Below, piece by piece: positions 33,319-54,703 of a DNA stretch of 64,000 nt. This stretch comes from Tagaea sp. (GTDB taxonomy: Bacteria; Pseudomonadota; Alphaproteobacteria; CACIAM-22H2), in contig OZ245864.1 of NCBI GenBank assembly GCA_965229215.1, positions 134,360 through 198,359 on the forward strand, written 5' to 3'. Position numbers and translations under genes: made by a program. The notes under the pieces are model-generated. The model saw nothing but the letters and a program-made list of their open reading frames with translations, was not told where the DNA came from and ran no database searches. Position 1 is the stretch's first letter. Each line of letters begins with the position of its first letter.

Positions 33319-33433
33319 CGGACCTCCTGAGTCACGAACTGGCGAACGGGCCGGGAGACGATACGGCAAGCGGGGGGCGAGTCAATTCCGTCGGGCCTGC
33401 GGTTTTCCCCCGATCGGCGTATCCTTGCAGGCG

Positions 33434-33721
33434 ATGAGCGAACCGGACCGCAAGCCCGCGAACCGCCTGGCCGTCTTCGCGGTGGGCACCATGGGATGGG
33501 TGGTCGGCACGCTGTACGCGTGGCTGAACAGCCCGCTCTACCAGCATTGCCAGACGCTGTTTCCCGGCAGGTCGCTCGAATGCCGGCGTGCGCTCTATGG
33601 CTGGATCCCGCGCTTCGCGCTCTACTGGCCTTGGCCGATCCTCGGCGCGCTGGCCTTCGCCACCGTCTTCGTCCTCGCCATGCGGCTGCGCCGCGCGACG
33701 CGGGGAGATGGTGCCGGGTGA
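33434..33721 (+). CDS. hypothetical small membrane protein
   Basis: 95-aa ORF whose last codons and stop lie inside the tRNA-derived attL repeat. Confidence 0.35.
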   Translation: MSEPDRKPANRLAVFAVGTMGWVVGTLYAWLNSPLYQHCQTLFPGRSLECRRALYGWIPRFALYWPWPILGALAFATVFVLAMRLRRATRGDGAG

Positions 33722-33762
33722 GGGGATTGAACCCCCGACCTTCGGTTTACAAAACCGCTGCT
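33708..33762. repeat. attL: 55-bp direct repeat identical to the 3' part of tRNA-Thr (41754..41808)
   Basis: Exact 55-nt identity with the tRNA 3' region (anticodon arm through CCA) at the other end of the island. Confidence 0.85.
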
Positions 33763-33963
33763 ACCCCGTAGCAAGCTGGGGCAACCTGAGCGGATGGCCC
33801 CCAGCCTAGACACTCACAAAGCCTTTTATTTGCAGCATTGGATGCTATTTTCGAGCGATGGGGGGTTGCACGATGGTGCAACCTGAGCGACTCTTAAATC
33901 GTGGCTAGGGCGGTGGCTAGACCGGCTCGCCGACCCGCTAGCCACGGTTCGAGGGGTGCCCCG

Positions 33964-35388
33964 ATGAGCGGTTCAAAGCCTTTCCGCAACGACAAGGCGG
34001 CCAGCGATTGGATCAGGAAGACGCTGCGGAGCATGGCCTCGCCCCAGGTGCGCCATAACGACGGGCACGGTCTCTACCTGCGACTGTCGCTAGGTGGCAC
34101 GGCGACATGGACCCTCAAGCGCGCGGTCAACGGCAAGCCGCAGGAAAAGACCCTTGGGCACTTCCCCTCGGTCGGCGTGAACGCTGCCCGCGCGAAGGCG
34201 GCCGAATGGCGTGCGGCGATCGACGACGGCAAGGATCCGGCCAAGGACGAAGCGGAGGCACACGCGGCCGAGCTGGCAGCGCGGCAGGCCCGCGAAGAAT
34301 CCGAACGGCAGTTGAAGCTGCGGACGTTCAACGCACTGGCCGAGCGGTTCATGCGCGAACACGTACAGCGCAAGCTGCGTGCGTCCATGCATACGGCCTA
34401 TGGCAGCACCTTGGGTCTGTTGCCCGCGACCATCCCGTCACGTAGCAAGCTTGGGAAGCCTCGCCAGCGTCGTTGCTACGTCGCCGCATGGCGCAACAGG
34501 CCCATAAAGGACATCACGAGCGACGACGTCGACAACGTCTTGAACGCCATCTACACCGCGGCCGAAGCGAAGTTCCGAAAGCGTCATCCCGACTATCCGG
34601 CCGACAAGGAAGTACCTGCAGGCGTGGGCGCTGGCGGAAACCGGATACGGGTCTATCTGCACCGCTTTTTCGAGTGGTGCATCAAGGAACGCTGCATCGT
34701 CGTGAACCCAGTTATGCAGACGTCGCCGAAGGCCGCGGAGCGCAAGCTCGACCGTGTCTTGACCGACGCCGAACTGGTCGAAGTCTGGAACGCGATCGAC
34801 GCGAAAGGCGGCCAGTTTAAGACCGTCTTGAAGGTCATGGCGTACACCGGCCAGCGTGAAAACGAGGTCGCGGGCATGCGTCGGTCGGAGTTGACCTTGG
34901 ACGGGCCGGAGCCGTTGTGGTCCATGCCGCCGTCCCGTACGAAGAAAGACCGCGCGCACAACGTCCCGCTGGCGCCGCAAGTCGTCGACCTGTTGCGCGC
35001 CGTCCCGCCGCTCGAGGAAAGCGACCTCGTATTCACGACGACGGGCAAGACGCCCCTGTCTGGGTGGTCGAAGCTGAAAGCGCGTATAGACGCCCAGATT
35101 GCGCGGGCACGCCGGGCGGCAGGGATAGAGGCCGACATGCCGGCTTGGCGCTTCCATGACCTTCGCAGGACCGCCCGCACGGCCTTCGCGCGTGCTGGCG
35201 TCAAGCCAGAGGTCGCGCGCGCCATCGTGAACCACAAGGCCAAGGGTATGGACGCGATCTATGATCGCTTCGAGTACATGCCACAGCGTCGGGCGGCCCT
35301 GACGGACTGGGCGAACGAACTGGACGGCATCATCGCAGGGACGTCGCGGCATAACGTGGTGCAACTGCGGGCCGCTGGCGCGGCATGA
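33964..35388 (+). CDS. int: tyrosine-type site-specific integrase (P4-like, N-terminal arm-binding domain)
   Basis: Catalytic-domain residues in the HDLRRT and VNHKAKGMDAIYDR regions. Adjacent to a partial tRNA copy. Confidence 0.9.
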   Translation: MSGSKPFRNDKAASDWIRKTLRSMASPQVRHNDGHGLYLRLSLGGTATWTLKRAVNGKPQEKTLGHFPSVGVNAARAKAAEWRAAIDDGKDPAKDEAEAHAAELAARQAREESERQLKLRTFNALAERFMREHVQRKLRASMHTAYGSTLGLLPATIPSRSKLGKPRQRRCYVAAWRNRPIKDITSDDVDNVLNAIYTAAEAKFRKRHPDYPADKEVPAGVGAGGNRIRVYLHRFFEWCIKERCIVVNPVMQTSPKAAERKLDRVLTDAELVEVWNAIDAKGGQFKTVLKVMAYTGQRENEVAGMRRSELTLDGPEPLWSMPPSRTKKDRAHNVPLAPQVVDLLRAVPPLEESDLVFTTTGKTPLSGWSKLKARIDAQIARARRAAGIEADMPAWRFHDLRRTARTAFARAGVKPEVARAIVNHKAKGMDAIYDRFEYMPQRRAALTDWANELDGIIAGTSRHNVVQLRAAGAA

Positions 35389-35570
35389 TGGCCTAGATAC
35401 ATTTTCCCTCGCGTACCCTTCACGCGCGGGGGGACAGTGCGTTGACACCCCGCGCGGGTTGCACCATTCTGCCGTGCATCGGGCCGCTGCCAATTTACCG
35501 ATAGCCAAAACGTCGAAACGCCGAAGGCCTCCCACGTCCGCAACTGCGGACCCAAGGTCGGAGTTTTGAC

Positions 35571-35828
35571 GTGTCCGAGAAGCTCAAATCATACGTGCGT
35601 TCCGAAGCCATCCTGCGCCGGCAGGGTTGGAGCCGCTGGACGCTGGCCCGCAAGATGAAGGCCAAAGAGCGCCCGTTCCCTGCGCCAGCGATGGAACTGG
35701 ATGGCGTTCGCTACTGGTCCGCAGTGGCCTATGCCGCCTGGCAGGACGAACAGGAAGCCGCATCGGCCCCCCGCCGGCGTACACCGCCGACCCGCACCCC
35801 ACATGCCGCCGACCAGGTGGCCGCCTAA
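35571..35828 (+). CDS. AlpA-family excisionase/transcriptional regulator
   Basis: 85-aa protein with a MerR-like HTH pattern (...ILRRQGWSRWTLARKMKAKERPFPAPAMELDGVRYWSAVAYAAW). GTG start with AAGGTCGGAG RBS. Lies between int and the primase gene. Confidence 0.65.
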   Translation: MSEKLKSYVRSEAILRRQGWSRWTLARKMKAKERPFPAPAMELDGVRYWSAVAYAAWQDEQEAASAPRRRTPPTRTPHAADQVAA

Positions 35829-35964
35829 AACGAAAGCCCCGACGTGGAGGGACACGCCGGGGCTCGCAAGTTCAGTGTCGAAGAGATAACCGCCCAAACA
35901 CTGTACTCGCGCGCCTGTCGGACTGCAACCTTTCCGCGTCGATCCAGACATGAGGATCGACACC

Positions 35965-37977
35965 ATGCCTAATTCACAATCGACACTCGACGCAGCCTTG
36001 GCACTCGCGCGCCGGGGCTTCTACGTCTTCCCCTGCGTCGTCAAAGGCGAAAGCAAAAAGCCGTCCATCAAGAACTGGAAGACGGAGGCCACGCGCGACG
36101 AGGCGAAGATCCGCACCTGGTGGAACGGTGAATTTGAGCGGTGCGCCGTCGGTATTGCGCACGGCAAATTTGGCGATGGATCTTGGTACCTCGTCACGTT
36201 CGACTGCGACAACAAGCACGGCAAGAACGGCGCCGATCGGCTGTTCGAGCTCGAGCTGGAACATGGCGACCTTCCGCGCACATACACCCAACGGACCCAA
36301 TCGGGCGGCCTTCACTATGTATTCAAGACGCGGCACCCGCTCGATGGGCCTGCGGACTTTCGCCCAGGACTCGACATTCGTGGCGCCCGGAACCTCATCT
36401 ACGCCGCCGGCAGCGTGTGGAACGGCAAGGCGTACACGGTCGAAGTCGACGCCGACGTGGCCGAGGCGCCTGAGTGGGTTGTCGACCTTGTCGGGGTGCG
36501 GTCTGTGGATGAGCCCCGCGTCGGGGCGCCGGAGGGGTTGATTCTCGATACGCCGGAGGCTGTCGCTGCTGCGGTCGCGTACATCAACACCGAGTCCCCG
36601 GAGGGGCAGAGCGGTAACCGCGACGCACCAGCGTTTAAGACGGCCGCAGGATGCAGGGATTTCGCGTTGACGCCTGAGAAGACGCTCGAGTTGATGGATG
36701 AGTATTGGAACGGTGTGCGATGCGTCCCGGCGATGGATCTTGACCGGTTGGAAGAGAAGGTCGCGAACGCCTACAAGAGCGCGAGCTCGACGATCGGAGC
36801 GAAGGCGCCCGCCGCGGCCGAGATGCAGCCCGCAGAAGCGGCCAAAACGACCGAGCCGCCGACGACGCAGGCGCCAGCGGCCGAGCCCTTCGCGATCGTC
36901 GGTTATGACGATCCGATCGACACGCCGGAACCCGAGCCTTTGATCGACGGCATATTGGACAAGGGCGCCGCCGTGTTGCTTTACGGCCTGCCGAAGACGG
37001 GCAAGTCGTTTGTGCTGTTCGAGATGGGGCGGTGCGTTGCCGGGAGCGTCAAATTCGCCGACCGGTACACCGAGCACGGCGCCGTCGTCATCTTCTGTTT
37101 CGAGGGACACCCTGGTCTATCGCGGCGCCGCAAGGCGATGCGGCTGCATCATGGCGACAAGAACTTGCCCCTGTTCATCGTGAAGGCGAGGGGCAGCATA
37201 TTGTCGAAGACAACTCAGGCCCAGATGGCTGCGACCGTGGACACTATCGAAGCCCGATGCGGGCAGCGCGTCGTGTTGGTCGGCGTCGACACCGTTACGG
37301 CTGCAGCACCGGGTGAAGACCAATACGCCCCCGGTCCCGCTGGCAACATCGTCAATGCTGCGAAAGCGGTATCGACCGCCCACGGTCGCACGCTGGTTCT
37401 GGTCCATCACGCAGCTAAGGACAAAGGTAACTCCCCCCTCGGATCGGTTGCCTTCCAAGGCAGCGTCGACGCCGTGCTCAAAGTCGGAAAGGATGGGTCG
37501 TGCGGAAAGCTCGACGGCGAAATGATGCGCGAGCACGCGGCCGGCCAGCCTCTCGAGTTTGAGCTGCGGACGGTCCACGTAGGCACGACGGCCCGAGGGG
37601 TCGCGGTGTCGAGTGCGGTGGCGCTATTCGGACCGGCGACCGATTTCACGAAGGCACTGACACCCAAAGAGGCCGAGGTCGAAGAACTGGTTTTGAAGCT
37701 GGCGGCCGATTGCGTACCCGGCGCGGACGACGAGCACGCCGACATCCGCCTTGCTCAAAAGGACGTCGAGGACGCCTTAGTGAACCGGTCGGACCCGCAC
37801 AAAGACGGGATTCTCCGCGTTAGAGCGGAAACGGCCGCAAGGAACGCGATTAAACATTGGAGGGAGAAACGCGCACAAAGTCACAATGTGCGCGTTGAGA
37901 AGCACGGAAAGGCCAATTTCCTGTGTTTTCACCCGATGGCGTTCATCCGCACAAACGCGGAGAAACGCGCACAATGA
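35965..37977 (+). CDS. bifunctional primase-polymerase (PrimPol N-terminal domain) fused to an AAA_25/RecA-like NTPase domain
   Basis: N-terminal YVFPC...K.P...W PrimPol motif. Walker A GLPKTGKS at about residue 340. GAGGA RBS before ATG 35965. Confidence 0.8.
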   Translation: MPNSQSTLDAALALARRGFYVFPCVVKGESKKPSIKNWKTEATRDEAKIRTWWNGEFERCAVGIAHGKFGDGSWYLVTFDCDNKHGKNGADRLFELELEHGDLPRTYTQRTQSGGLHYVFKTRHPLDGPADFRPGLDIRGARNLIYAAGSVWNGKAYTVEVDADVAEAPEWVVDLVGVRSVDEPRVGAPEGLILDTPEAVAAAVAYINTESPEGQSGNRDAPAFKTAAGCRDFALTPEKTLELMDEYWNGVRCVPAMDLDRLEEKVANAYKSASSTIGAKAPAAAEMQPAEAAKTTEPPTTQAPAAEPFAIVGYDDPIDTPEPEPLIDGILDKGAAVLLYGLPKTGKSFVLFEMGRCVAGSVKFADRYTEHGAVVIFCFEGHPGLSRRRKAMRLHHGDKNLPLFIVKARGSILSKTTQAQMAATVDTIEARCGQRVVLVGVDTVTAAAPGEDQYAPGPAGNIVNAAKAVSTAHGRTLVLVHHAAKDKGNSPLGSVAFQGSVDAVLKVGKDGSCGKLDGEMMREHAAGQPLEFELRTVHVGTTARGVAVSSAVALFGPATDFTKALTPKEAEVEELVLKLAADCVPGADDEHADIRLAQKDVEDALVNRSDPHKDGILRVRAETAARNAIKHWREKRAQSHNVRVEKHGKANFLCFHPMAFIRTNAEKRAQ

Positions 37978-38011
37978 TATTTGCCCCATCTAGCCGGGAT
38001 GCGCACACGCA

Positions 38012-38032
38012 ACACCCCCCTTTAGGGGGTGT
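38012..38032 (+). terminator. GC hairpin immediately after the primase stop (ACACCCCC-CTTTA-GGGGGTGT)
   Basis: 8-bp perfect stem with a 5-nt loop, 35 nt after the primase stop. No T-tract follows. Confidence 0.35.
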
Positions 38033-38149
38033 GCGCGTCGCCCGTAGGGGTTGAAAGATACCGGCCGGACCTTTGACGGCATGATCTTTCGAAAGGGTCC
38101 GAAGGCCCGTTGTGTACGGATGCCGGTTCACCCGTTGAGCGAGGCAGCG

Positions 38150-38323
38150 TTACCGCTGCGTCGGCCCTTTCTTCTCGAACTGTTCCAGCTTCGCGATGAG
38201 ATGACGGAGGCGGGAATTCGGGATGACGATCGCGTCGTCGCCCTGGCGCATGTGGATGATACCGATGTCGGCGTCGTTGCCGACTTGGACGGACGCCCAT
38301 CCCTTTCCGAGGTCCAATTGCAT
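38150..38323 (-). CDS. hypothetical small protein (57 aa)
   Basis: AAAGGGGA RBS 7 nt before ATG 38321-38323. Lies on the opposite strand to the island replication module. Confidence 0.4.
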   Translation of the reverse strand: MQLDLGKGWASVQVGNDADIGIIHMRQGDDAIVIPNSRLRHLIAKLEQFEKKGPTQR

Positions 38324-38807
38324 GTAGATCCCCTTTCCGTTTGGTTTATCGCAACAGCGGTGACGGGAATATCTGGCTTTCACAATCCTCAGTCAAGATT
38401 AAGTTATTGAAACTGTTGCGATTTTCACAACTTTTCTAGTTAAGCCATTAAAAGTATGTAGCAAATAATTCTGCACGCAGGGGGTGCGCTGGCCGTCAGT
38501 TGCCAACCGACTCGCGCGGACACGCGGGAAGAATCCGCGGCGATCGACGGCGACGACCGGCCGACGCACGACACATGACGGCGTCAGGATCCGGCGCACC
38601 GGATGGCGCATCCGCTGCTATCGGCTGCAAGCTGCCGCAACGGCACGCATCCGCCGTCCAGAGCGTGACGACGGCGAAATAGCCACCGCTGTAGCCACGA
38701 ACGCCGGGAAGATGCACCAGCGACGACCGCAGCCGGACCGGCGAGGCGTTGGGGTGTCGACCCCACCCCCGGCCTCGAGCTTGGGGGATTCCGTTTTCGA
38801 GGGGGTA

Positions 38808-38837
38808 CCCCGGGAAATCGGGCCGGGGGGTCTTTTT
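38808..38837 (+). terminator. intrinsic terminator-like hairpin (CCCCGG-loop-CCGGGG followed by TCTTTTT)
   Basis: 6-bp GC stem, 9-nt loop, then a T-tract. Located in a 570-bp region with no convincing ORF. Confidence 0.45.
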
Positions 38838-38951
38838 CATCCACCGGCCGCGGAAGCTACATGAACTGTCTGTCACTTTTGTTTCGATTAACTCAACACA
38901 AGGTTGATTCCAGCTAGCCATGCCACTATTTAGTGTGCGTAAATACTCGAC

Positions 38952-39170
38952 ATGACCAAACCGAACTTCGACTTCACAGGCGCATCGTGCCGCTGGCTCG
39001 AGGATGACCCCCACGACCCGAGCTGCCGGCAATGCCCCAAGGCGCCAGCGGCAGGCCGGCCGTACTGCCCCGAGCATCAGCACCGCGCATATCAGCCGAA
39101 CAGCGCACCCCGGAAACGTGAAGACCTGGACCCTTGGGCCAAGGTCGCCGTCGATGCGGAGGCCGCATGA
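38952..39170 (+). CDS. small Cys-rich (zinc-ribbon-like) hypothetical protein
   Basis: 72-aa protein with C-x9-C-x2-C-x10-C spacing. Its stop forms an ATGA overlap with the next ORF. Confidence 0.45.
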   Translation: MTKPNFDFTGASCRWLEDDPHDPSCRQCPKAPAAGRPYCPEHQHRAYQPNSAPRKREDLDPWAKVAVDAEAA

Positions 39171-39895
39171 GAATCGCGGACATCGTTTCTCGCTTCACGT
39201 CACCCCCGCCCAGCACGGTCGCCATCGCCCAGGCGTCGGGGCAGTCGACCATCAGACTCTCGCTCACAAGGAACTGGAAACTGGCCATGACGATCATCGC
39301 CGAGAAACTCGACACCGCGCACGCCAAGCGGACGGAGCTGGTAGAGGCGCGACGTGCGCTTCTGCTCGACGCCGTACAGGGCGAGCCGGGCGCCGACCCG
39401 AAACTTCGCAAGATCGAAAACGAGATTGCGGATCTGGACCGGAGCGTCGCCCAGCTCAGGGACGCGAATACTCTGGCTCGGGAACGCGACGACGCCGAAC
39501 GAGAAGCCGCCGCCGCGGCCGAATACAAGCGGCTCAAAGCGGAATGGGAACAGCGCAACGCCGACATGCGCCAACTCGCAGAACACGCCGACGCGCTGGC
39601 GAGCAAGGCCGCCGCCGCATTCATCGAACTGGCCGATAAAGCCGAAGCCCAGGCGCGATCGGCGCCCGTCGAGCTTTACGGCTTCCCGGCCGACAGGCCG
39701 CTGGGCCAAGGGCGCACCGCATCAGCCGTGCGGAACGTACTCGCACGGCACGGACTCGATTGGGCGCGTTCCGGCTTTTTCCGCTGGCCCGACCCGCCGC
39801 TCATCGTGGAAGTCATCGACGCCGGCATCACTTGGGCGAAGTACGAAGTCGATCGTATCGAATCTCGCAAGAAAGCGGCGAAGTCGGCCGCCTAA
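39167..39895 (+). CDS. hypothetical coiled-coil protein
   Basis: Translationally coupled downstream of the Cys-rich ORF. Long charged heptad-like segment (KRTELVEARRALL...AEYKRLKAEWEQRNADMRQLAEHADALASKAAAAF). Confidence 0.5.
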   Translation: MRIADIVSRFTSPPPSTVAIAQASGQSTIRLSLTRNWKLAMTIIAEKLDTAHAKRTELVEARRALLLDAVQGEPGADPKLRKIENEIADLDRSVAQLRDANTLARERDDAEREAAAAAEYKRLKAEWEQRNADMRQLAEHADALASKAAAAFIELADKAEAQARSAPVELYGFPADRPLGQGRTASAVRNVLARHGLDWARSGFFRWPDPPLIVEVIDAGITWAKYEVDRIESRKKAAKSAA

Positions 39896-39916
39896 CCCGA
39901 AAGGAACAGCCCCCAC

Positions 39917-40105
39917 ATGACCACCAAGTATTTCGGACTGGATGTCGGTTTCGATGCAGCGCAGCCGATAACCGCGGCAGGGTCGACGACCAGCAAAGTC
40001 GTCGAGCTTTCTCTAACAACGGATACGTTGACGCGCGCCGATGCCGTCAACGCCGTCGAGCGCATCCGGCTTCATCTTTCAAATTGTTCATGGCCTCCGG
40101 CTTGA
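39917..40105 (+). CDS. hypothetical small protein
   Basis: AAAGGAA RBS before ATG 39917. Located in the island cargo operon. Confidence 0.35.
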   Translation: MTTKYFGLDVGFDAAQPITAAGSTTSKVVELSLTTDTLTRADAVNAVERIRLHLSNCSWPPA

Positions 40106-40106
40106 C

Positions 40107-40334
40107 ATGAGCGGATCCAACAAAGCCATCACGGAACGCGCCCGCCTGGTCGGCGCCCTTGGCGAGGTGCGCGGCATGTTGCTGCGCGAGCTGACCGAGA
40201 TGCGCCGCGAGTTGAAGGACAAGACGGAAGCGTTGCGGACCACGACGGCCCGGCTCGAGTACGTCCGCCGGCAAGTGGCCTTCCAGCGCGCACGACGCGA
40301 TCGGATCATGGGAAAGAAGCGGGGCCCGGCGTGA
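40107..40334 (+). CDS. hypothetical small coiled-coil protein
   Basis: Starts 1 nt after the previous stop. Charged helical sequence. Confidence 0.4.
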   Translation: MSGSNKAITERARLVGALGEVRGMLLRELTEMRRELKDKTEALRTTTARLEYVRRQVAFQRARRDRIMGKKRGPA

Positions 40335-40743
40335 ACCGAGCCCCGCCCTACTCGAGCCTATTTCAAGGCCCAGATCAAAATGGCGATCGCGCTGATGATC
40401 GCCGCCGGATCGATCCGAAATTCCAGCTTGGTTTTGCGAGCCATGGGTGTGGCTCCTTTTGTCCGAGAGTCCAAACCAAATTCGCGGTTTGGAACCACAA
40501 ATCCCGCTGCGGGGTTGATGCCTTGGCGGGGTTTGCCCCAGATGTGCCGAAGCGTGCGTTTGGTGCTGCGCTTGGCTTGCTTGGGACTGCGGATCGGCGA
40601 GCTTCGACTCTGCGTTTGTCTTCCCGTCGATCGGGAAGCTGGACGACTTCGCAAGCTGCTTACCTGATACCTAAATCTGACAGATTCGCTGCGAGCGCAA
40701 GAATTAAGAAGTGCCAACTCGCGCCACTGAAAGGAACGTCCCG

Positions 40744-41418
40744 ATGACCGATACACCGCCCACTACGGCCCCCGCCGACATCGGCCCCGCAACCGCGGCC
40801 ATGCTTCCGAACCTGACGCCAGACGCGGCGCGGGCGGAAATCGCTGCGTTGAAAGCCGGCGCGGAACCGGGATTCCTCGATGCGTACCTGGGCGGCGTCG
40901 GACACGAGGCGGCGCTGACGAGGATGAGCCACCTTCACAAGCTCGCCAGTGGCGAGGCCGCGGACACGGCGGCCCCTGCAAGCGCGACGCCGGGCCGCGA
41001 TGCCGCCGGCAGATTCACGGGCGACGCCAACGCGATCGACATCGCAGAATACAAGGACCTGAATCTTCGCCCCGCGGAAGGTTCCAGCATCGAGGATATG
41101 GCCGCCGCGAACATGGCGGCCCGTGAAACCGCGGCCGTGCTGGGCATCCCGCCCGACGAGGCGCGCGGCCACGTCGCATTGCTCGAGGAGTCCATCGCGC
41201 GCCGGGGCGGCAAGTCGATGGACGCGGGCGAGCTCGATACGATGGAGACGCATCTGCAGCGAGTTGCAGGCGCCGCCTATGGCGAAGTCGTCGCCGGCTT
41301 CAAGGATGCGATCGCGCGCGCCGGCAAAAACGGCGCCGGGCTGCGGAACGCGATCCTCGCCGCCGACCCGCCGATCGCAGCGATGATGATCGCGAACCTG
41401 GGCCGCAAGCGAGCTTGA
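40744..41418 (+). CDS. hypothetical protein (island cargo)
   Basis: AAAGGAA RBS before ATG 40744. 224 aa with no recognisable family. Confidence 0.5.
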   Translation: MTDTPPTTAPADIGPATAAMLPNLTPDAARAEIAALKAGAEPGFLDAYLGGVGHEAALTRMSHLHKLASGEAADTAAPASATPGRDAAGRFTGDANAIDIAEYKDLNLRPAEGSSIEDMAAANMAARETAAVLGIPPDEARGHVALLEESIARRGGKSMDAGELDTMETHLQRVAGAAYGEVVAGFKDAIARAGKNGAGLRNAILAADPPIAAMMIANLGRKRA

Positions 41419-41422
41419 ACCG

Positions 41423-41701
41423 ATGACCGACGCCCCGCTATCACGCGATGACATGCTCGACGGCGCCCGCGTGGCGGTGGCTCGTCGTATCGGCCGGCCG
41501 CCGGGTAGCCTCAACACCCGCACGAAGGACATCGCCGTCCGCGTGGCGAATCTGATGCAGAGCGGGCTCGACATGGTCGACGCCCTGGCCGTCGTGGCCG
41601 AGGACAAGACGGCATCGCTCGATCAGCGATTCGTCGCCTTGCGGCTACTGTTTGGTGCGATGGCCGGCCGGATCGTGCGGCCCGAGGGGCCGGGGGGCTA
41701 A
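41423..41701 (+). CDS. hypothetical small protein (island cargo)
   Basis: ATG 4 nt after the previous stop. Contains a RRIGRPPGSLN basic patch. Confidence 0.4.
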   Translation: MTDAPLSRDDMLDGARVAVARRIGRPPGSLNTRTKDIAVRVANLMQSGLDMVDALAVVAEDKTASLDQRFVALRLLFGAMAGRIVRPEGPGG

Positions 41702-41753
41702 TTCGTGGCTAGAGCCGTGGCTAAAGGCACGGTTTCAAAGCCAAATTGAAATT

Positions 41754-41808
41754 ATGGTGCCGGGTGAGGGGATTGAACCCCCGACCTTCGGTTTACAAAA
41801 CCGCTGCT
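41754..41808. repeat. attR: 55-bp repeat (3' part of the intact tRNA-Thr)
   Basis: Identical to 33708..33762. Confidence 0.85.
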
Positions 41809-41829
41809 CTACCGCTGAGCTAACCCGGC
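41755..41829 (-). tRNA. tRNA-Thr (anticodon UGU), CCA encoded
   Basis: Manual cloverleaf: acceptor GCCGGGT/ACCCGGC, D-arm GCTC-AGCGGTA-GAGC, anticodon loop TTTGTAA, T-arm GGGGG-TTCAATC-CCCTC, 3' CCA. Confidence 0.75.
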
Positions 41830-41991
41830 ATCTATCTGTTTGCTATTAGTTATTCCCGGTCGCGTTGTCCATCGTGGCGTGGCACATCGGGATCGCCGGC
41901 GGTGCGCCGGAACCGCGGAAGCCGCGATCATGCCCGCGGGAAACGACATCCGAGGCGAATGCCTTCGGCAATATCGGGTGTCGGTCGTGCG

Positions 41992-42402
41992 CTAGCTCTG
42001 CAGGACCGTCTGTATCGAGCGTCGCAGCGATCCGGCGGATAGCGGGGCATGCAGGTAAACGGCATGAGGCATGCCGGGCAACAGGGGGCCAGGTTCGCCC
42101 GCCCTGCTGAGAATCACGATCGGGGTCAAGCGAAGCGGCGGCATCGACTGAAACCACTGGCCGGCTTCCTGGCCGCTCACGTCGCGCAACTGCCGGCCCA
42201 GCAGTATTACGTCCGGGATCTGCATCCGGACAGTGGCGATCGCGGCGACGCCATTGTCGATCTCCTGGACCTCGTATCCGAGATCTTCGAGAACCATCCG
42301 ACACAGACGCCGCGCATTCGTGTCCGCATCGACAATCAGTGCCAATGATCGCAGTTTTGGCATGGTGGGCGCCGGCGAGGCCTCAGGTTGGAGATTTAGC
42401 AT
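41992..42402 (-). CDS. single-domain receiver-like protein lacking the phospho-acceptor Asp (FixT-like candidate)
   Basis: REC fold (ALIVDAD...PDVILLG...) with Gly where the phospho-Asp is expected. Immediately downstream of the fixK-like gene, as for fixK-fixT pairs. Confidence 0.5.
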   Translation of the reverse strand: MLNLQPEASPAPTMPKLRSLALIVDADTNARRLCRMVLEDLGYEVQEIDNGVAAIATVRMQIPDVILLGRQLRDVSGQEAGQWFQSMPPLRLTPIVILSRAGEPGPLLPGMPHAVYLHAPLSAGSLRRSIQTVLQS

Positions 42403-42428
42403 TTCCAGTCGGGGAGTTCCGGCCAGGC

Positions 42429-43136
42429 TCAGACGCAGGCGCCGAGCTCGCCGGCAGAAACTTCTTCCAGGCGATCCCGATCGAGGAATTCGATGCGATC
42501 CAAGGCAGGCAGCGCGATGAGTTTGTCGCGCTTGAGCTTGGTAAGGGTCCGCGAGACGGTCTCGACGGTCAGGCCCAGATAGTCGCCGATGTCGCTGCGC
42601 GTCATCGGGACGGAGACCTCATCTTGCGCATCGGGCTGCTGCTCGGCCATCAGCAGCAGGAAGCTCGCGACCTTCTCGGTTGCGGTCTTTCGGCCGAGGA
42701 GGAGCATCAGGTCCTGCGCGTAGCGGAGCTCGTCGGACGTGACGGCCCAGAGGCGCCGGGCAAGCCCGGGGACGCTGTCCACCAGCCGGTCGAACGAAGT
42801 ACGGGGGTATCGGCAGAGCGTGACGTCGGTGATCGCTTCTGCCGTATAGGCGTGGGTGCCGTCCGGTGCCAGGCCCAGAATATGCCCTTCGGTCGGGAAG
42901 CCCATGATCTGGCGGCGGCCATCGGAGAGAAGCCGGTAGAGGCGCAGGGTCCCGTGCACGACCTCGTAGATATAGTCGGAAGCATCCCCTTCGCTGAAAA
43001 TCGTTTCTCCGGCGACCTTGCGGTTCAGGGAGCTGATTTCCGCAAAGCGGCTGGCCGACTGATGTCCGAGGCCCCGGCACACGGCGAGAGAGCCGAAATC
43101 CAGTTTGGCGGCGCTTGAATTGGCTTGGACCTGCAT
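42429..43136 (-). CDS. fixK: Crp/Fnr-family regulator, FixK-like (no N-terminal Cys cluster)
   Basis: cNMP-binding fold plus C-terminal HTH (RSDIGDYLGLTVETVSRTLTKL). Located beside FixL-like and cco genes. Confidence 0.8.
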   Translation of the reverse strand: MQVQANSSAAKLDFGSLAVCRGLGHQSASRFAEISSLNRKVAGETIFSEGDASDYIYEVVHGTLRLYRLLSDGRRQIMGFPTEGHILGLAPDGTHAYTAEAITDVTLCRYPRTSFDRLVDSVPGLARRLWAVTSDELRYAQDLMLLLGRKTATEKVASFLLLMAEQQPDAQDEVSVPMTRSDIGDYLGLTVETVSRTLTKLKRDKLIALPALDRIEFLDRDRLEEVSAGELGACV

Positions 43137-43253
43137 TGCGCGTTCTCCCTTGGTATGCCCGTCCGGACTTCATCCGGCACAGACGACATTAGGCGCGCCA
43201 TTTCACGGGCCTATGTCGGGACATCGGGAAAACGGTCTCAATTGGCGACAGAG

Positions 43254-43269
43254 TGTGACGGTTTGTGAC
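43254..43269. promoter_or_regulatory. direct repeat TGTGAC-N4-TGTGAC in the fixK / response-regulator divergent intergenic region
   Basis: Two TGTGAC hexamers spaced 10 bp centre-to-centre, as expected for OmpR/PhoB-family sites. 34 bp upstream of the response-regulator ATG. Confidence 0.3.
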
Positions 43270-43302
43270 AGACTGCGGAGCCAGTTACCGGACCCGGACG
43301 CA

Positions 43303-44049
43303 ATGGCCAGCCAGTTTCATATCCTGATCGTCGACGACGATGCCCGTATCCGCACCATGTTGCGGCGCTATCTGACCGACGAAGGCTTCGCGGTCAGCGA
43401 AGCCCAAGATGGAGCTGGCGCGCGGGCGCTGATGGAGCGCGAAGCCGTCGATCTGATCCTGCTTGACCTGATGATGCCGGGCGAAGACGGGTTGTCGATC
43501 GCGCGGCACATACGGCAGGTCTCACAGATCCCGATCATCATGCTTACCGGAAAAGGGGACGTGATCGACCGCGTCGCTGGCTTGGAGGCCGGGGCCGACG
43601 ACTATGTCGCCAAGCCATTCCATCTGCGCGAAGTGCTTGCCCGTATCCGAACGGTGATGCGTCGTGGCGGTGGGCGGGAACCGGCTCCTGCCGTCGTTTC
43701 CCAGACCCCGGCGGGCGGGGCCTCGGCGGACGGTATCCGCCATTTCGAAGGATGGCGGCTCGATTTCCTGAAGCGCGAGCTCTCGCGTCGGAATGGCGAG
43801 ATTGTCGCCTTGACCAGCGGCGAATTCGACTTGCTCGGCGTTTTCGTCAGCCACCCCGGACGGGTTCTCAGTCGCGATCAGCTGATGGAACTTGCCAAGG
43901 GGCGCGAATGGGCGGCCTTCGATCGGGCGGTGGATACGCAGGTCGGCAGATTGAGAAAGAAGATCGAAGTCGACCCGGAGAATCCCAGCCTGATCAAGAC
44001 GGTGCGTGGTAGCGGCTATATCTTTGCGGCAACAGTGACGCCCGGCTAG
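43303..44049 (+). CDS. OmpR-family two-component response regulator
   Basis: REC domain (ILIVDDD...DLILLDLMMPGEDG) plus a winged-helix trans_reg_C domain. Confidence 0.85.
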   Translation: MASQFHILIVDDDARIRTMLRRYLTDEGFAVSEAQDGAGARALMEREAVDLILLDLMMPGEDGLSIARHIRQVSQIPIIMLTGKGDVIDRVAGLEAGADDYVAKPFHLREVLARIRTVMRRGGGREPAPAVVSQTPAGGASADGIRHFEGWRLDFLKRELSRRNGEIVALTSGEFDLLGVFVSHPGRVLSRDQLMELAKGREWAAFDRAVDTQVGRLRKKIEVDPENPSLIKTVRGSGYIFAATVTPG

Positions 44050-45674
44050 CCGCCGGATCGGGAATCGAGCAGTTCGCGGAGCTTTGCCTGCAGCTCCTTC
44101 AGGCCGTACGGCTTGCCGAGCCAGCCGGCCGCAGTCCGAAGAAGGCCGTCCTTGATCGCCGCCGGTTCGGCAAATCCGGACGTCAGGATGATCTTGAGAT
44201 TCGGCCAGCGCCGGCGAACTTCATGGGCGAGTTCGATGCCGCTGATGCCGCCGGCCATGATGACGTCGCTGAACAGAAGATCGATTTTCGGCTCGAGATC
44301 CAGAACGCGGAGCGCGGCAGGGCCGCTTTCCGCTTCCAGCACCGAATAGCCGAGTTCTTTCAGGCGCCGGATGGACACACGCCGGACGCGGGGATCGTCT
44401 TCCACGACCAGAATCGTCCGGCTGGAATTTTCGCGAAATGCCGGGCCTTTGGGCGCGCTTTGCTGGTTCGGGACGGGCGCCTGCTCGTGTACGGGAAGAA
44501 AAATCCGGATCGTCGTGCCGTGCCCCAGCTCGCTGACCAGCTGGATGTGGCCGCCTGACTGCTTGACGAACCCGTACACCATGCTGAGGCCGAGACCGCT
44601 GCCTTTGCCGGTTTCCTTTGTCGTGAAGAAGGGCTCGAATGCGCGCTGGCGCACTTCGGGAGTCATGCCCGTGCCGGTGTCGGTCACCGAGACGCTGGCG
44701 TATCGCCCCGGCCCGAGGCCGTCGATGGCGATCTGTCCCTTTTCGACATCCGTGCGGGCTGTTTCGATCGTCAGGCGGCCGCCATCGGGCATGGCATCGC
44801 GTGCGTTGATGGCGAGATTGAGCAGCACATTCTCGAACTGGCCCGGATCGGCCATGACCACGGGCGAATCGTCGGAAAATCTCGTTTCGATCGTCGCGTT
44901 CTGGCCGAGGGTCCGCCGAAGCAGGTCGACCATTCCGCCCGCCAGCGCACTCAGATCGATCGGCTTGGGGTTCAGCGGCTGTCGCCGTCCGAAGGCGAGC
45001 AGGCGATTGGCAAGCTGGGCGCCGAGCGCTGCCGCCTCCTGTGCTTCGTTCAGAAGTTCGAGATTCTGCGGGCTCTTCAGCCGCATCTGAAGCATCTCGA
45101 GATTGCCGGTGATCACGGTGAGGAGATTGTTGAAGTCGTGGGCGAGCCCTCCGGTGAGCTGGCCGATGGCTTCCATCTTCTGTGCCTGCCGCAGGTCCTG
45201 CTCGAGCTTGGCGCGCGCGGTCAGGTCGCGGATGAACCCGGTGAACAAGTGGGTGTCGGCAAGCTTCACTTCGCCGACGGCAAGCTCCATCGGAAAGATC
45301 GAGCCATCCTTGCGGCGCGCTTCCACCTCGCGGCCGATGCCGATGATGCGCTTTTGCCCGGTGCGCAGGTAGCGATCGAGATATCCGTCATGATTTTCCC
45401 GATGCGGCGTCGCCATCAGCATGCTGACGTTGTTGCCGATCACCTCGCCCGGCGAATAGCCGAAAAGACGAACTGCCGCGCTGCTGAAAGACTGGATGAT
45501 GCCGTGCCGGTCGATCGTGATGATGGCGTCCGGGGCCGTTTCCAGGACGGAGCGCAGGCGAGCCTCGCGCTCCTCGATTATCGCCAGCGTGCGCTTGGTC
45601 TGGTCGGATCGGTCGCCTTTTTTCGCCTGGCGCGGAGATGCCCGAGCCGCACGTTTCTTGATTGCCTTCTTCAT
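44046..45674 (-). CDS. fixL: FixL-like heme-PAS oxygen-sensor hybrid histidine kinase (PAS-HisKA-HATPase_c-REC)
   Basis: The PAS region closely resembles the FixL heme pocket (..NHDGYLDRYLRTGQKRIIGIGREVEARRKDGSIFPMELAVGE..FTGFIRDLT). H-box LAHDFNN and a C-terminal receiver. Confidence 0.85.
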   Translation of the reverse strand: MKKAIKKRAARASPRQAKKGDRSDQTKRTLAIIEEREARLRSVLETAPDAIITIDRHGIIQSFSSAAVRLFGYSPGEVIGNNVSMLMATPHRENHDGYLDRYLRTGQKRIIGIGREVEARRKDGSIFPMELAVGEVKLADTHLFTGFIRDLTARAKLEQDLRQAQKMEAIGQLTGGLAHDFNNLLTVITGNLEMLQMRLKSPQNLELLNEAQEAAALGAQLANRLLAFGRRQPLNPKPIDLSALAGGMVDLLRRTLGQNATIETRFSDDSPVVMADPGQFENVLLNLAINARDAMPDGGRLTIETARTDVEKGQIAIDGLGPGRYASVSVTDTGTGMTPEVRQRAFEPFFTTKETGKGSGLGLSMVYGFVKQSGGHIQLVSELGHGTTIRIFLPVHEQAPVPNQQSAPKGPAFRENSSRTILVVEDDPRVRRVSIRRLKELGYSVLEAESGPAALRVLDLEPKIDLLFSDVIMAGGISGIELAHEVRRRWPNLKIILTSGFAEPAAIKDGLLRTAAGWLGKPYGLKELQAKLRELLDSRSGG

Positions 45675-45751
45675 CGAGACCGGGCCCTCAACTGACAGGC
45701 ATCCAGTCTAGCCCGGCCGGCGGCCGGGAGCGACCGTCGTCGCGCCGGCCG

Positions 45752-45934
45752 CTACTCCGCGTCCGCGCCGTCGAAATGCCTTTTGATGAACTGGAAATCG
45801 AGAACGATCGAAAAGGCAAAGATTGCCAGACCGAAGAGATAGATGCCGGTATCGGCCGCGCGCGAAGCCATGAACAGGCCGACCAGGCCGAGTATTGTCG
45901 CGAAGACGGCGACGACAACTGTAGCGACGTTCAT
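45752..45934 (-). CDS. hypothetical 60-aa two-TM membrane protein, translationally coupled to ccoS
   Basis: ATG 45932-45934 overlaps the ccoS stop in an ATGA junction. Sequence MNVATVVVAVFATILGLVGLFMASRAADTGIYLFGLAIFAFSIVLDFQFIKRHFDGADAE. Confidence 0.45.
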   Translation of the reverse strand: MNVATVVVAVFATILGLVGLFMASRAADTGIYLFGLAIFAFSIVLDFQFIKRHFDGADAE

Positions 45935-46128
45935 TTCAGGCTCTCCTTTTCGGGGGTCTTGCGGGACTGGACGATTCCGGTTTTCGACGGTTCGTCGTCG
46001 AACAGGATGCGGCCGGCGGATCCGTCCAGGTCGCTGAACTGTCCGGTGTGCATCGCCCAGAGGAAGGCCGCGAGGCCGATTCCACCCAGAACGAGCGCTG
46101 CGGGAATGAGAATCAGAAGGCTGTTCAT
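45931..46128 (-). CDS. ccoS: cbb3-type cytochrome oxidase assembly protein CcoS/FixS
   Basis: 65-aa protein MNSLLILIPAALVLGGIGLAAFLWAMHTGQFSDLD... ATGA overlap with ccoI. Confidence 0.8.
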   Translation of the reverse strand: MNSLLILIPAALVLGGIGLAAFLWAMHTGQFSDLDGSAGRILFDDEPSKTGIVQSRKTPEKESLK

Positions 46129-48527
46129 TGCCGGTTCTCCCGACGCAGTGACAGGCGGAGCGCATTTCCGATCACGAGCAGGGACGAAGACGACATCGCG
46201 ATCGCGGCGATCAGCGGGGTCACCTTGCCTGCCATGGCGAGCGGTACGGCGCCGATATTGTAGAAGATCGCCAATGCAAGGTTCTGTCGCACAAGGCGTC
46301 CCGCGCGGCGCGCGACGTCGAGAACCTCCGCGATCGGTGCCAGCCGATTGCCCTGAAACACGATGTCCGCGGCGGTCTGGCTCACGTCTGCCGCCGTCGC
46401 GGGCGAGGCCGATACGTCGGCGGTCGCAAGCGCCGGCGCATCGTTCAGTCCGTCGCCGACCATCAGCGTCCGGCGGCCGGATGCACGAAGCGCGACGAGC
46501 CGTGCGGCTTTGTCGGCCGGGGTGCAGGCGGCCGTCCAATGCCCGATGCCGGCCTCGATTGCAGCCGGACCTACGGCGGCTGCGCGATCGCCGGACAGCA
46601 GTTCGATCTGCAGGCCACGCCCGCGCAGTGTACGGATGACGTCGCCCGCATCGGCGCGCAGGCGATCGGAGAACGCGAACCGGATTGCCGCACGATTCGG
46701 CATGACCAGCCACATTTCGGGTCCGGTGGTGGCGGATTCGATGGCGGGATCGATCCCGCAGAACGCGCGACTGCCCAACAGGACAGGTCCGGCGCCGGTC
46801 TCCATCGAGAGACCCATCCCCGGATGTTCGAGCACGTCCGCGGCGGGAGGCACCGGCGGGGCAGCCCTGACGAGGGCGCGCGAAAGCGGATGGCGGCTGG
46901 CCGCGGCAAGCGAAGCAGCCACCTGCAGATCCTCCGGCGTCCGCGACGGATCGGGAAGCAGTTCGAGGTGTCCTTCGGTAAGCGTCCCAGTCTTGTCGAA
47001 CACGACCGTGTCGACCGCTTCGAGCCGTTCCAGCGCGGTCGGCGATTTCAGGAGAATGCCTTGTCTGAGCAGCCGGCCACCGGCCACCACCTGAACGACC
47101 GGCACGGCGAGGGCGAGCGCACAAGGGCATGTAATGATGAGCACGGCCACCGCATTCAGGAGCGCCACCTGCCAACCGGCGTCTCCGAGCACGCTCCAGG
47201 CGATGAAGGTCAGCGCAGCGAGCGTATGGACGGCCGGTGCATAGGCGCGGGCGACCCGATCGGCCAGAACGACGAAGCGGCTGCGCCCCTGTTCAGCCGC
47301 CTCCATCAGACGCACGATCTCGGCAAGCAGCGTTCGGCTGCCGGTCGCCGTCACGACGATACGCAAGGGCGCGGACAGGTTCACCATCCCCGCAAATACG
47401 GCCGTGCCGACTGCCGCCGCCATCGGGGTCGACTCGCCGGTGACCAGGCTCGTATCCAGATCGGAGCGGCCGGACTCGATCTTTCCGTCGACACCGATCC
47501 GTTCGCCGGCCGCGACGATCACGTGGCTGCCGGGAGCGACCGCGTCGGCGCGCTGAGTGGCAATTCTGCCGTCGCCCTGCACGACGGAGACGGCACTCGG
47601 ACTCAGCGAAACAAGATACTCTGCAGCCGAATGCGCCCGTCCGCGGGACCTTGCATCGAGATATCGGCCGACCAGCAGGAAGAACAGGAGTGCCACCGCC
47701 GAATCGAAGTAGGCATGCTGGCCCGACGACACCGTCTCCCACAGGCTCATGGCGCCTGCCAGCAGGACTCCGATCGAAATGGGGACATCCATATTCGTCC
47801 GCCCGCCGCGAAGCGCCTGCAGGGCGGACCGGAAGAATGGCCGACCCGAATAGGCGATCGTCGGCAGGGCGACCAATGCGGAAACCCAGTGCATCAAGTC
47901 CCGGGTTGCCGGGCCCATGTCGCCGACTTGTCCGGCCCAGACCGACACCGAGAGAAGCATGATGTTGCTGGCGGCGAACCCGGCGACGGCCATCGCCTTC
48001 AGAAGTTCGTTTTCGTGTCGCGCCGTCGCGCTGGCGATCTTGGCGGGATCGTACGGCACAAGATGGAATCCCAGTGCCGCCGCGCGCGCGACATGGCGGT
48101 TTGCGTCGGCCGGCGATCCTTCCCAGCGCAGCAGGAGGCGTCGGGTAGACAGGTTAACGCGGCTGGAGACGACATCCTTGTCGTCGCTCAGGACGGTTTC
48201 AAGGAGCCAGACGCACGCGGCACAGGAGAGACCGTCGACAAGCAGATTGATCTCGTGCCGGCCGGAAGCGGCGCTCGTCGCATAACCCGAGCAGTCGTAG
48301 GTGCCTTCGGCATCCGGGCGCAAGGGCCGGGCGCCCGGCACGATACGCCGACGCCGATAGAACTGGTCGAGTCCGAGGCCCGTGACGATCGCATACGCGG
48401 CTTCGCATCCGCTGCAGCAGAACCCCCGCCCGCCGACGGCCGCCGCCGTACCGCAATGCAGGCAAGCCGGAGAATCGGCCGCTTCCGGTTTCGCGATGTG
48501 CTCCGTCCATGCCGCGACGTCGCTCAT
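46125..48527 (-). CDS. ccoI: copper-translocating P1B-type ATPase CcoI/FixI
   Basis: N-terminal Cys-rich region, CPC motif (ITCPCALALA), DKTGT phosphorylation site and GDGLND hinge. Start at MSDVAAW (ATG 48525-48527) overlaps the ccoH stop. Confidence 0.85.
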   Translation of the reverse strand: MSDVAAWTEHIAKPEAADSPACLHCGTAAAVGGRGFCCSGCEAAYAIVTGLGLDQFYRRRRIVPGARPLRPDAEGTYDCSGYATSAASGRHEINLLVDGLSCAACVWLLETVLSDDKDVVSSRVNLSTRRLLLRWEGSPADANRHVARAAALGFHLVPYDPAKIASATARHENELLKAMAVAGFAASNIMLLSVSVWAGQVGDMGPATRDLMHWVSALVALPTIAYSGRPFFRSALQALRGGRTNMDVPISIGVLLAGAMSLWETVSSGQHAYFDSAVALLFFLLVGRYLDARSRGRAHSAAEYLVSLSPSAVSVVQGDGRIATQRADAVAPGSHVIVAAGERIGVDGKIESGRSDLDTSLVTGESTPMAAAVGTAVFAGMVNLSAPLRIVVTATGSRTLLAEIVRLMEAAEQGRSRFVVLADRVARAYAPAVHTLAALTFIAWSVLGDAGWQVALLNAVAVLIITCPCALALAVPVVQVVAGGRLLRQGILLKSPTALERLEAVDTVVFDKTGTLTEGHLELLPDPSRTPEDLQVAASLAAASRHPLSRALVRAAPPVPPAADVLEHPGMGLSMETGAGPVLLGSRAFCGIDPAIESATTGPEMWLVMPNRAAIRFAFSDRLRADAGDVIRTLRGRGLQIELLSGDRAAAVGPAAIEAGIGHWTAACTPADKAARLVALRASGRRTLMVGDGLNDAPALATADVSASPATAADVSQTAADIVFQGNRLAPIAEVLDVARRAGRLVRQNLALAIFYNIGAVPLAMAGKVTPLIAAIAMSSSSLLVIGNALRLSLRRENRQ

Positions 48528-49006: not shown

Positions 49007-49009
49007 GGC

Positions 49010-50503: not shown

Positions 50504-50512
50504 CGCCGCACC

Positions 50513-51382: not shown

Positions 51383-51391
51383 GGCGGTATC

Positions 51392-51544: not shown

Positions 51545-51553
51545 CTTCGGTTC

Positions 51554-52279: not shown

Positions 52280-52289
52280 CTTCGGTTCC

Positions 52290-53762: not shown

Positions 53763-53822
53763 GGGACTTCCCTGAAGATGTACATTGATGGCAAAGCTAG
53801 CGTCGAACGCGCCGGCGGCGCC

Positions 53823-53836: not shown

Positions 53837-53927
53837 GGTTTTACCATTGGATCTTCTGTAAATGGACCTTAAAGCATGGGAGCAGGCGGGATCGCCGCCA
53901 GCGAACGTTCGGGAGAAGGAAGGCCAG

Positions 53928-54701: not shown

Positions 54702-54703
54702 CG

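Follow-up and report, generated by a model that had tools for sequence, protein, structure and literature searches.

We analyzed a 64,000-nt stretch of the Tagaea sp. contig OZ245864.1 (GenBank assembly GCA_965229215.1, positions 134,360–198,359; the whole stretch is referred to here as the window), in which a segment of ~8.1 kb (33708–41808) lies inserted at a tRNA-Thr gene. Judging from the genes and attachment (att) sites read in the sequence, we are highly confident that this element is a genuine and probably functional integrative replicon. Our preferred reading, to which we give a probability of about 0.55, is that it represents an intact member of a new family of ~8-kb elements that are integrative, self-replicating, and non-self-transmissible, and that it is most plausibly a phage satellite; a dependence on a helper phage is what we infer. 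The satellite reading is based on a replicase of phage type, on the absence of virion, lysis, and conjugation genes, and on the occurrence of relatives of one of its proteins (orf224) upstream of a small terminase gene (terS) in one locus (L017) and of terS and terL in another (L021).

Satellites have been well characterized in a few lineages (Enterobacteria, Firmicutes, and Vibrio), and thousands of minimal integrase–alpA–primase clusters stand unclassified, as their hijacking genes are not known. The element described here defines a syntenic Rhodospirillales family and brings forward several candidates for such genes and sites, namely the orf224 family, a 92-aa protein in the terS position, a GcrA mimic, and a non-coding block. 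If helper dependence is true, these would amount to novel ways of taking over packaging or transcription in Alphaproteobacteria; if it is false, the element would be one more small integrative replicon whose transfer route is not known.

The sole tRNA in the 64-kb window is tRNA-Thr(tgt), with the anticodon UGU, located on the minus strand at 41755–41829 (ARAGORN; Rfam, 69 bits). A repeat search returned an exact direct repeat of 55 nt, by far the longest in the region, which occurs at 33708–33762 and 41754–41808 with an insert of ~8.1 kb between the copies. It corresponds to the 3′ 54 nt of the tRNA-Thr plus one base, spanning the CCA end and the anticodon loop and reaching into the D-arm side. 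An earlier note, made from the sequence alone, had described a tRNA-Thr-integrated island bracketed by this repeat; its coordinates proved exact, and the island is real, with intact att sites and with no counterpart in four related genomes (L001, L002, L003, and L007). The features of the insertion site are the following:

33708–33762: distal att core (attR in the tRNA orientation), a partial 3′ copy of tRNA-Thr; the same core bounds the related elements L009 and L015
33763–33780, minus strand: element-borne tRNA-like 5′ stub of 18 bases, which with the distal core forms a degenerate full-length tRNA-like sequence
41754–41808: tRNA-proximal att core (attL in the tRNA orientation), the exact repeat
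41755–41829, minus strand: intact tRNA-Thr(UGU), the integration target (ARAGORN, Rfam)

The sequence at 33712–33780 scores 26.9 bits over positions 1–71 of the Rfam tRNA model, just below the gathering score of 29. Since the distal core and the 18 element bases together score near the threshold for a tRNA, the element carries a degenerate tRNA-like attP. We also noted a chromosomal open reading frame (ORF) at 33430–33721, encoding a small hydrophobic protein (91% identity over 53 aa in L007), which runs antisense to the tRNA and stops within the att core; the repeat supplies its last codons.

Relatives with an empty site came from a scan of species-representative genomes with the solute-binding protein of the left flank as the query, which returned Rhodospirillales metagenome-assembled genomes labelled Tagaea, uncultured Azospirillum, and Telmatospirillum. 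In L001, L002, L003, and L007, tRNA-Thr(tgt) is followed by the same left flank, with neither the 8-kb insert nor any element protein, and the identity of the tRNA-Thr to that of the window is 98.8% over an 84-nt match (L001) or 100% (L002, L003, and L007). The empty attB that the earlier note had proposed to look for in relatives is supported in that the insert is absent from these four genomes; just one flank is common to them and the window, the DNA 5′ of the tRNA being rearranged. In the closest relative, L007 (~88% identity), the DNA 5′ of the tRNA-Thr matches window positions 56825–64000, and 41830–56825 is absent. The empty site of L007 further contains ~105 bp with no window counterpart between the tRNA 3′ end and the conserved flank (9565–9670), an indel beside att. 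Within the window, the G+C content at third codon positions (GC3) is 0.75–0.85 in the element genes vs. ~0.9 or more in the core genome. Independent evidence of mobility is provided by L009 and L015, in which a related element occupies tRNA-Thr(tgt) with the same 54–55-nt core among different neighboring genes.

The layout of the element recurs in four other elements (L009, L015, L019, and L020), with the replicase modules exchanged. In L009 and L015, the integrase gene (int, 474 aa) is followed by genes for an 83-aa protein, a primase-polymerase (PrimPol, 633 aa), a 57-aa protein on the minus strand, and a GcrA-like protein of 75 aa, and then by right-hand genes for proteins of 243, 62, 75, 227, and 92 aa and the tRNA. 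Protein identities of these two elements to the window element are as follows:

int: 88–90% (L009, L015)
Xis-like protein: 77–78% (L009, L015)
PrimPol: 42% (L009) and 30% (L015)
GcrA-like protein: 49–55% (L009, L015)
orf242: 52–54% (L009, L015)
orf224: 50% (L009) and 65% (L015)

The host flanks of L009 and L015 are 95–97% identical, yet their replicases and orf224 proteins differ, which indicates module exchange. The integrase of L019 is 38% identical to that of the window element and lies beside a different partial tRNA, and the replicase is split (328 aa plus a 363-aa AAA_25 protein); L019 keeps the gene order, with homologues of orf242 (46%) and orf224 (36%). L020 is a fifth variant, carrying a PrimPol–AAA_25 gene and an orf224 homologue. 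A metagenome scan with orf92 yielded nothing beyond L015 and L009 itself, recovered as L016. We conclude that the family is small and previously undescribed, that it belongs to Rhodospirillales and related Alphaproteobacteria, and that its members are ~8 kb in size.

The recombination module comprises two genes and, at three places in the element, copies of the heptamer GTGGCTA:

33901–33945: GTGGCTA-N5-GTGGCTA pair and an inverted copy, just upstream of int; candidate arm-type sites
33964–35388, plus strand: tyrosine integrase of 474 aa (Pfam, PHROG), with the start as called on L008
35571–35828, plus strand: Xis/AlpA-like small DNA-binding protein of 85 aa, by weak PHROG and NCBIfam matches
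38680–38698: inverted GTGGCTA pair (38680 and 38692) in the central intergenic region
41705–41723: GTGGCTA-N5-GTGGCTA pair (41705 and 41717, spaced 12 nt), 30 nt from the att core; candidate arm-type sites

The integrase matches Pfam Phage_integrase (1.1e-15), Pfam Arm-DNA-bind_3 (8.8e-15), and phrog_1 (5.9e-51), and its N-terminal domain matches the structure of a CP4-like integrase (3jtz), i.e., a CP4/P4-type arm-binding domain. Alignment with lambda Int (1p7d) revealed that R (TGQR), HxxR (HDLRR), H (NHK), and Y (AIY) are all present, catalytic residues whose possible loss had been raised earlier as an objection to the island. The integrase sits distally to the tRNA, beside the partial tRNA copy and reading inward, with the intact tRNA adjoining orf92, in the window as in L009, L015, and L019; this is the reverse of the order in CP4-57 and many tRNA islands, where the intact tRNA comes first and int after it. 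The 85-aa protein displayed weak matches to phrog_4745 (3.5e-6), phrog_66 (“excisionase and transcriptional regulator”, 2.5e-4), and NCBIfam Xis_Gifsy_1 (2e-3), with no match in the Pfam scan, including Phage_AlpA, and we regard it as a candidate excisionase or regulator. The int–alpA–PrimPol/AAA_25 order given in the earlier note is therefore retained as integrase, small DNA-binding protein, and PrimPol/AAA_25, with “alpA” as a doubtful label.

The 64-kb window contains 8 copies of GTGGCTA, compared to 2.4 expected (none of 100 shuffles reached 8), and seven of the eight copies fall inside the element. The copies at 33901 and 33913 lie 12 nt apart, start to start, and ~140 nt from the core, with the single inverted copy at 33939. 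The same arrangement was found in L009 and L015, and the central TAGCCACCGCTnTAGCCAC is kept even in the distant element L019, in which GTGACTA/GTGGCTA repeats also precede int. Upon circularization, the att-proximal sets would flank the core, in the layout of the arm-type sites of a classical attP, and GTGGCTA would presumably be bound by the arm domain of the integrase or by the Xis-like protein.

These observations bear on whether the element is instead the decayed remnant of a temperate phage that has lost its structural genes, is immobile, and evolves neutrally. The replicase and the orf224 family do have relatives in phage or prophage-like loci, and activity has not been seen. However, five independent variants keep the compact ~8-kb layout with open reading frames, the two att cores are perfect copies, an intact integrase is present, and the candidate arm-type sites are conserved; moreover, int and orf92 are 88–90% identical across hosts with the other modules swapped, which argues for ongoing selection and recombination. 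We consider a remnant improbable.

The replicase is encoded by a single gene:

35965–37977, plus strand: archaeo-eukaryotic primase (AEP)-type PrimPol fused to an AAA_25 RecA-fold NTPase, 670 aa (Pfam)

Its domains match Pfam Prim-Pol (3.6e-29) and AAA_25 (4e-27), the motifs DxD (FDCD), sxH (GGLHY), and AAA_25 Walker A (GLPKTGKS) can be read off the translation, and the protein is an exact match to the 670-aa database protein P0001. Homologues with 38–51% identity occur in podophage-like contigs together with DNA_pol_A, Sf6-type TerS, head-tail connector, and capsid genes, and p101 of Rhizobium phage 16-3 is a distant PrimPol relative (24% identity over 83% of the length). These relatives point to a replicase of phage type or ancestry. 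The idea that a contig of ~7–8 kb (L023 or the P0004 contig) might be the element in excised, circular form was dropped, since both proved to be fragments of phages and distinct from the window element. In L020, at least 7 copies of GCGGGATGTT in both orientations lie directly after the PrimPol gene (6450–6700) and resemble the iterons of an origin; a 60-aa ORF was called in overlap with them, probably spuriously, and no comparable iteron set was noted after the PrimPol gene of the window. One podophage-like contig with a PrimPol homologue, L012, encodes an Acb2/Tad1-hairpin protein (1786–2313; anti-CBASS/Thoeris sponge family) and a GapR-like DNA-binding protein.

To the right of the replicase, genes were selected on GC3, on gene calls made on L008, the same element as assembled independently from a metagenome, and on conservation in relatives. 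Given the ~65% G+C of the genome, most of the listed ORFs are spurious, and the eight small ORFs counted in the earlier note are reduced to six that are supported:

38150–38323, minus strand: orf57, a possible regulator, called on L008 and L009 and read away from the central AT-rich region
38952–39170, plus strand: GcrA-like protein of 72 aa, resembling just the C-terminal, sigma70-interacting part of GcrA
39167–39895, plus strand: orf242, a coiled-coil protein conserved in the family
40107–40334, plus strand: orf75, a small coiled-coil protein, called on L008 and L009
40744–41418, plus strand: orf224, of a rare all-helical family whose homologues adjoin small-terminase genes
41423–41701, plus strand: orf92, the last gene, with four helices and a RIGRPPGS motif, holding the position of terS in L017 and L021

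As the earlier note had stated for its cargo, the downstream proteins match no named family (Pfam, PHROG, PADLOC, and NCBIfam). The GC3 of orf57 is 0.75, measured on a 77-aa version with a GTG start (38150–38383); the protein is 25% identical to its L009 counterpart (E 4e-8), and profile searches, including NCBIfam, returned no family match. The 72-aa protein aligns with positions 107–153 of the 155 in the Pfam GcrA profile (3.6e-5, below the gathering score) and with NCBIfam sig70cofacGcrA (1.3e-5, below the cut-off), and its L009 homologue gives the same match. The identity of orf242 is 46–54% in L009, L015, and L019 and 29% in L018, with nothing except coiled-coil noise in Pfam and the PDB, and that of orf75 is 49–59% in L009 and L015.

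The orf224 family has 34 representatives at E ≤ 1e-3 among 1.84e9 proteins, and five family members match phrog_3742, a PHROG family of no assigned function. An AlphaFold2 model of orf224 (pLDDT, the predicted local distance difference test score, of 86) found no fold match in the PDB or BFVD. In L017, the gene immediately downstream of the orf224 relative encodes a Terminase_2 small terminase (phrog_51, 4.9e-15); in L021, the relative lies just upstream of a 99-aa protein with a weak Terminase_2 match (terS), which is followed by a Terminase_6N/6C large terminase; and in L018, it is followed by an orf242 homologue. L021 (1–12441) is a tRNA-Ser(gct) locus with two tyrosine integrases in opposite orientation and the gene order HTH_17, D5_N primase, TerS-like protein, orf224-like protein, TerS, and TerL; it is possibly a prophage or a capsid-forming satellite related to the window family.

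The orf92 protein is 88% identical in L009 and L015 and is found in only 5 clusters among 5.8e9 proteins. Its RIGRPPGS motif and its position suggested a small terminase; however, we rejected homology after four negative tests, in which BLASTP against the TerS-like proteins of L010, L017, and L021 gave no match, hhalign against TerS gave a probability of 0.2%, Foldseek against the PDB gave nothing significant and no TerS, and Pfam gave no match. The putative link of the right-hand operon to packaging is positional only.

Could the right-hand genes chiefly serve defence or host modulation, as an undescribed anti-phage or regulatory system in which, e.g., the GcrA mimic acts on sigma70? Satellites often carry defence genes (PMC10085698), and a protein with a GcrA-like sigma-binding domain could interfere with transcription, which is also compatible with a satellite. 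PADLOC, which the earlier note had suggested for the cargo, gave no match for any of the ten ORFs scanned (int, the alpA-like gene, PrimPol, the GcrA-like 72-aa gene, orf253, orf97, orf235, orf92, and two ORFs later judged non-coding, 38051–38410 and 40331–40747; orf57, at 38150–38323 on the minus strand, was left out of this set), and defence cargo was rejected as a candidate. Furthermore, the relatives have the same gene order, which makes these genes the conserved core operon of the element family and not the variable anti-phage hotspot envisaged earlier, and the orf224 family travels with terminase genes. A role that is chiefly defensive therefore appears very unlikely.

Three non-coding regions lie among these genes:

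38330–38475: AT-rich intergenic region, where the GC falls to 0.55, with the inverted repeat ATCGCAACAG/CTGTTGCGAT
38478–38795, plus strand: conserved non-coding block between orf57 and the GcrA-like gene, with a long hairpin and a terminal hairpin followed by a T-run
40335–40743: spacer of ~410 bp upstream of orf224, with no GC3 frame signal

The AT-rich region contains a promoter-like site on the minus strand (38396–38368) and is a candidate for divergent promoters or an origin of replication. Beside it, the GC-rich part of the block (38478–38765, ~290 nt) is 81% identical to L009 (233 of 289 positions), with sub-blocks at 86–90%, whereas the flanking DNA is ~45–55% identical to L009 and the distal two-thirds of the PrimPol gene cannot be aligned. 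This level of conservation equals that of the best-conserved element genes. The block was rejected as a gene, since an indel of 1 nt disrupts all reading frames and the three copies have no ORF in common, and it matches no known RNA family in Rfam. Its predicted RNA fold gives z-scores of −2.05 (plus strand) and −0.59 (minus strand), which is suggestive and not decisive, and the consensus fold contains a 27-bp hairpin, drawn from three sequences, too few for informative covariation. The block ends in hairpins with T-runs (38766–38795 and 38820–38840), the first overlapping a terminator-like site (38766–38787), and its central inverted GTGGCTA pair is kept in L019. It may represent a terminated leader RNA that controls the right-hand operon; alternatively, it may be an origin or a pac or cos site. 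Its conservation among elements with different replicases speaks to some degree against an origin tied to a particular replicase. The 40335–40743 spacer could not be aligned with L009 and L015, a similar gap exists in L009 and L019, and it contains a terminator-like site (40438–40455) and a promoter-like site (40677–40704).

Among the element proteins, no match to capsid, portal, large terminase, tail, lysis, or relaxase proteins was found in Pfam, PHROG, or NCBIfam, and Pfam and PHROG returned no homologue of capsid-morphogenesis proteins, terS, psu, sid, delta, or epsilon and no head-tail connector/adaptor or holin gene. The check for capsid and terminase genes that the earlier note had put forward thus found none. 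Coupling-protein and type IV secretion domains were likewise absent (Pfam, NCBIfam), and an oriT is unrecognizable from sequence alone.

The same searches are pertinent to a spread of the element without phage capsids, i.e., by conjugative mobilization, gene transfer agents (GTAs), or membrane vesicles, with the operon serving regulation or maintenance. GTAs are common in Alphaproteobacteria, and the missing terS and capsid-morphogenesis genes, together with the lack of relatives in viral contig collections, would fit such a route. Elements of the tycheposon type, moreover, are enriched in vesicles (bioRxiv 10.1101/2020.12.28.424599). On the other hand, no relaxase, oriT-associated, or coupling-protein gene was found, the replicase is of phage type, and the orf224 family adjoins terminase genes in L017 and L021. 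On balance, we regard capsid-free spread as rather unlikely.

Integrase, AlpA, and primase without structural genes are hallmarks common to satellites (PMC10085698). In SatelliteFinder, phage-inducible chromosomal islands (PICIs) have five core components, and more than 6000 “Type C” elements were excluded by the authors as ambiguous (PMC10085698). By these criteria, the window element is a PICI “Type C”, its integrase, primase-replicase, and doubtful regulator making three of the five components. The PICI/P4-like membership proposed in the earlier note was not established: no terS, capsid-morphogenesis, psu, sid, delta, or epsilon homologue was found in the element, and its replicase is not of the P4 alpha type.

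Like the Gram-negative PICIs (EcCICFT073-type), the element has an integrase at one end, a small putative AlpA/Xis-like regulator, a primase-replicase, and a rightward operon running to the other att site, is near 10 kb in size, and is without tail, lysis, and portal genes. Unlike them, it is without a detectable capsid-morphogenesis (Ppi/Rpp-like) or small-terminase homologue, its regulator has no Pfam Phage_AlpA match, and the families of its right-hand operon have no known relatives. Capsid-forming PICIs differ further in having their own capsid, portal, head-tail adaptor/connector, and terL genes, none of which the window element carries. With P4-like satellites, it shares a CP4/P4-type integrase with an arm-binding domain, a tRNA 3′ target, predicted self-replication, and a size of ~8–11 kb. 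P4 Sid is a helical protein similar in size to the helical protein of ~240 aa encoded in the window element, for which no homology to Sid has been shown. P4-like satellites differ in psu, delta, sid, and epsilon, in their alpha-type replicase (here an AEP PrimPol plus AAA_25), in the position of the integrase (here tRNA-distal), and in their hosts, with 93% of P4-like elements in Enterobacteriaceae (PMC10085698) and the window element in Rhodospirillales.

Satellite-like elements with integrase, AlpA, and primase are known from marine Alphaproteobacteria and have been found in virions (PMC9618062; bioRxiv 10.1101/2020.12.28.424599). Compared to these, i.e., PICI-like tycheposons and virion-encapsidated integrative mobile elements (VEIMEs), the window element is similar in its tRNA-targeting tyrosine recombinase, putative excisionase/AlpA, and primase/helicase, its small size, its modular exchange, and its occurrence in Alphaproteobacteria (bioRxiv 10.1101/2020.12.28.424599; PMC9618062). 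However, tycheposons and VEIMEs are defined by their own recombinase clades or by presence in virions, and a feature of the PICI-like tycheposons, terS or a gene for the major capsid protein, is missing from the window element. Cryptic prophage islands of the CP4-57 type (ssrA/tRNA–intA–alpA) resemble it in the integrase N-terminus (3jtz), a small putative Xis/AlpA-like partner, and a tRNA 3′ target. They differ in that the window element combines compactness with a complete replicase and an operon that is conserved, where they have a mosaic of decayed phage genes, and in that its integrase adjoins the partial, not the intact, tRNA copy.

If the element is a phage satellite, the integrase and the 85-aa Xis/AlpA-like protein would excise it as a circle, which the PrimPol-helicase would replicate. 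The right-hand operon (the GcrA-like protein, two coiled-coil proteins, orf224, and orf92) would be expressed behind the ~290-nt structured leader with its terminator-like hairpin, and its products may redirect the transcription, capsid assembly, and/or terminase of a helper phage, such that the 8.1-kb DNA would be packaged as a monomer or concatemer and transferred. In this scheme, the GcrA sigma-binding-domain mimic would act on host RNA polymerase and orf224 and orf92 on the terminase. P4, Staphylococcus aureus pathogenicity islands (SaPIs), and PICI-like elements (PLEs) have helical or scaffold-like size-redirecting proteins, and by analogy with these, the coiled-coil proteins may act on capsid assembly.

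Several points weigh against the satellite reading. The helper phage is not known, and neither an excised nor a packaged form has been seen. The right-hand proteins are without a demonstrated hijacking homologue, orf92 being not detectably TerS and orf224 lacking a fold match, the AlpA assignment is weak, and of the five core components of PICIs the element has only three. Very few members of the family are found in databases. In addition, scans of IMG/VR with PrimPol, orf224, orf92, and a 28-nt conserved motif of the non-coding block returned no relatives (absence from a database being weak evidence), tblastn with three orf224-family members against 50,697 phage records returned none, and a blastn comparison of the complete element with phages and plasmids gave matches in the tRNA part and nowhere else.

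More tentatively, and as a possibility that we hold with well under even confidence, the element may belong to a new alphaproteobacterial family of satellites of tailed phages, or possibly of GTAs, whose operon constitutes a previously unknown hijacking toolkit accompanied by a leader or pac element. Such a toolkit would comprise the GcrA-like sigma70-binding mimic, the two coiled-coil proteins, the terminase-associated orf224 family, and the 92-aa protein in replacement of TerS, and the ~290-nt leader or pac element would carry a candidate integrase- or Xis-type binding-site pair.

Finally, the ~15 kb on the 5′ side of the tRNA-Thr (41830–56825), noted above as missing at the L007 locus, have a GC3 of 0.77–0.86, below that of the core genome (~0.9). 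They encode an FNR/Crp-type regulator, a response regulator, a PAS histidine kinase, a FixI-like P-type ATPase, FixH, FixG, the cbb3 oxidase subunits FixP, FixO, and FixN, a DsbD-like protein, and an AtzD/TrzD-type amidohydrolase. With the low GC3 of both this segment and the element, the tRNA-Thr is flanked by two atypical segments.

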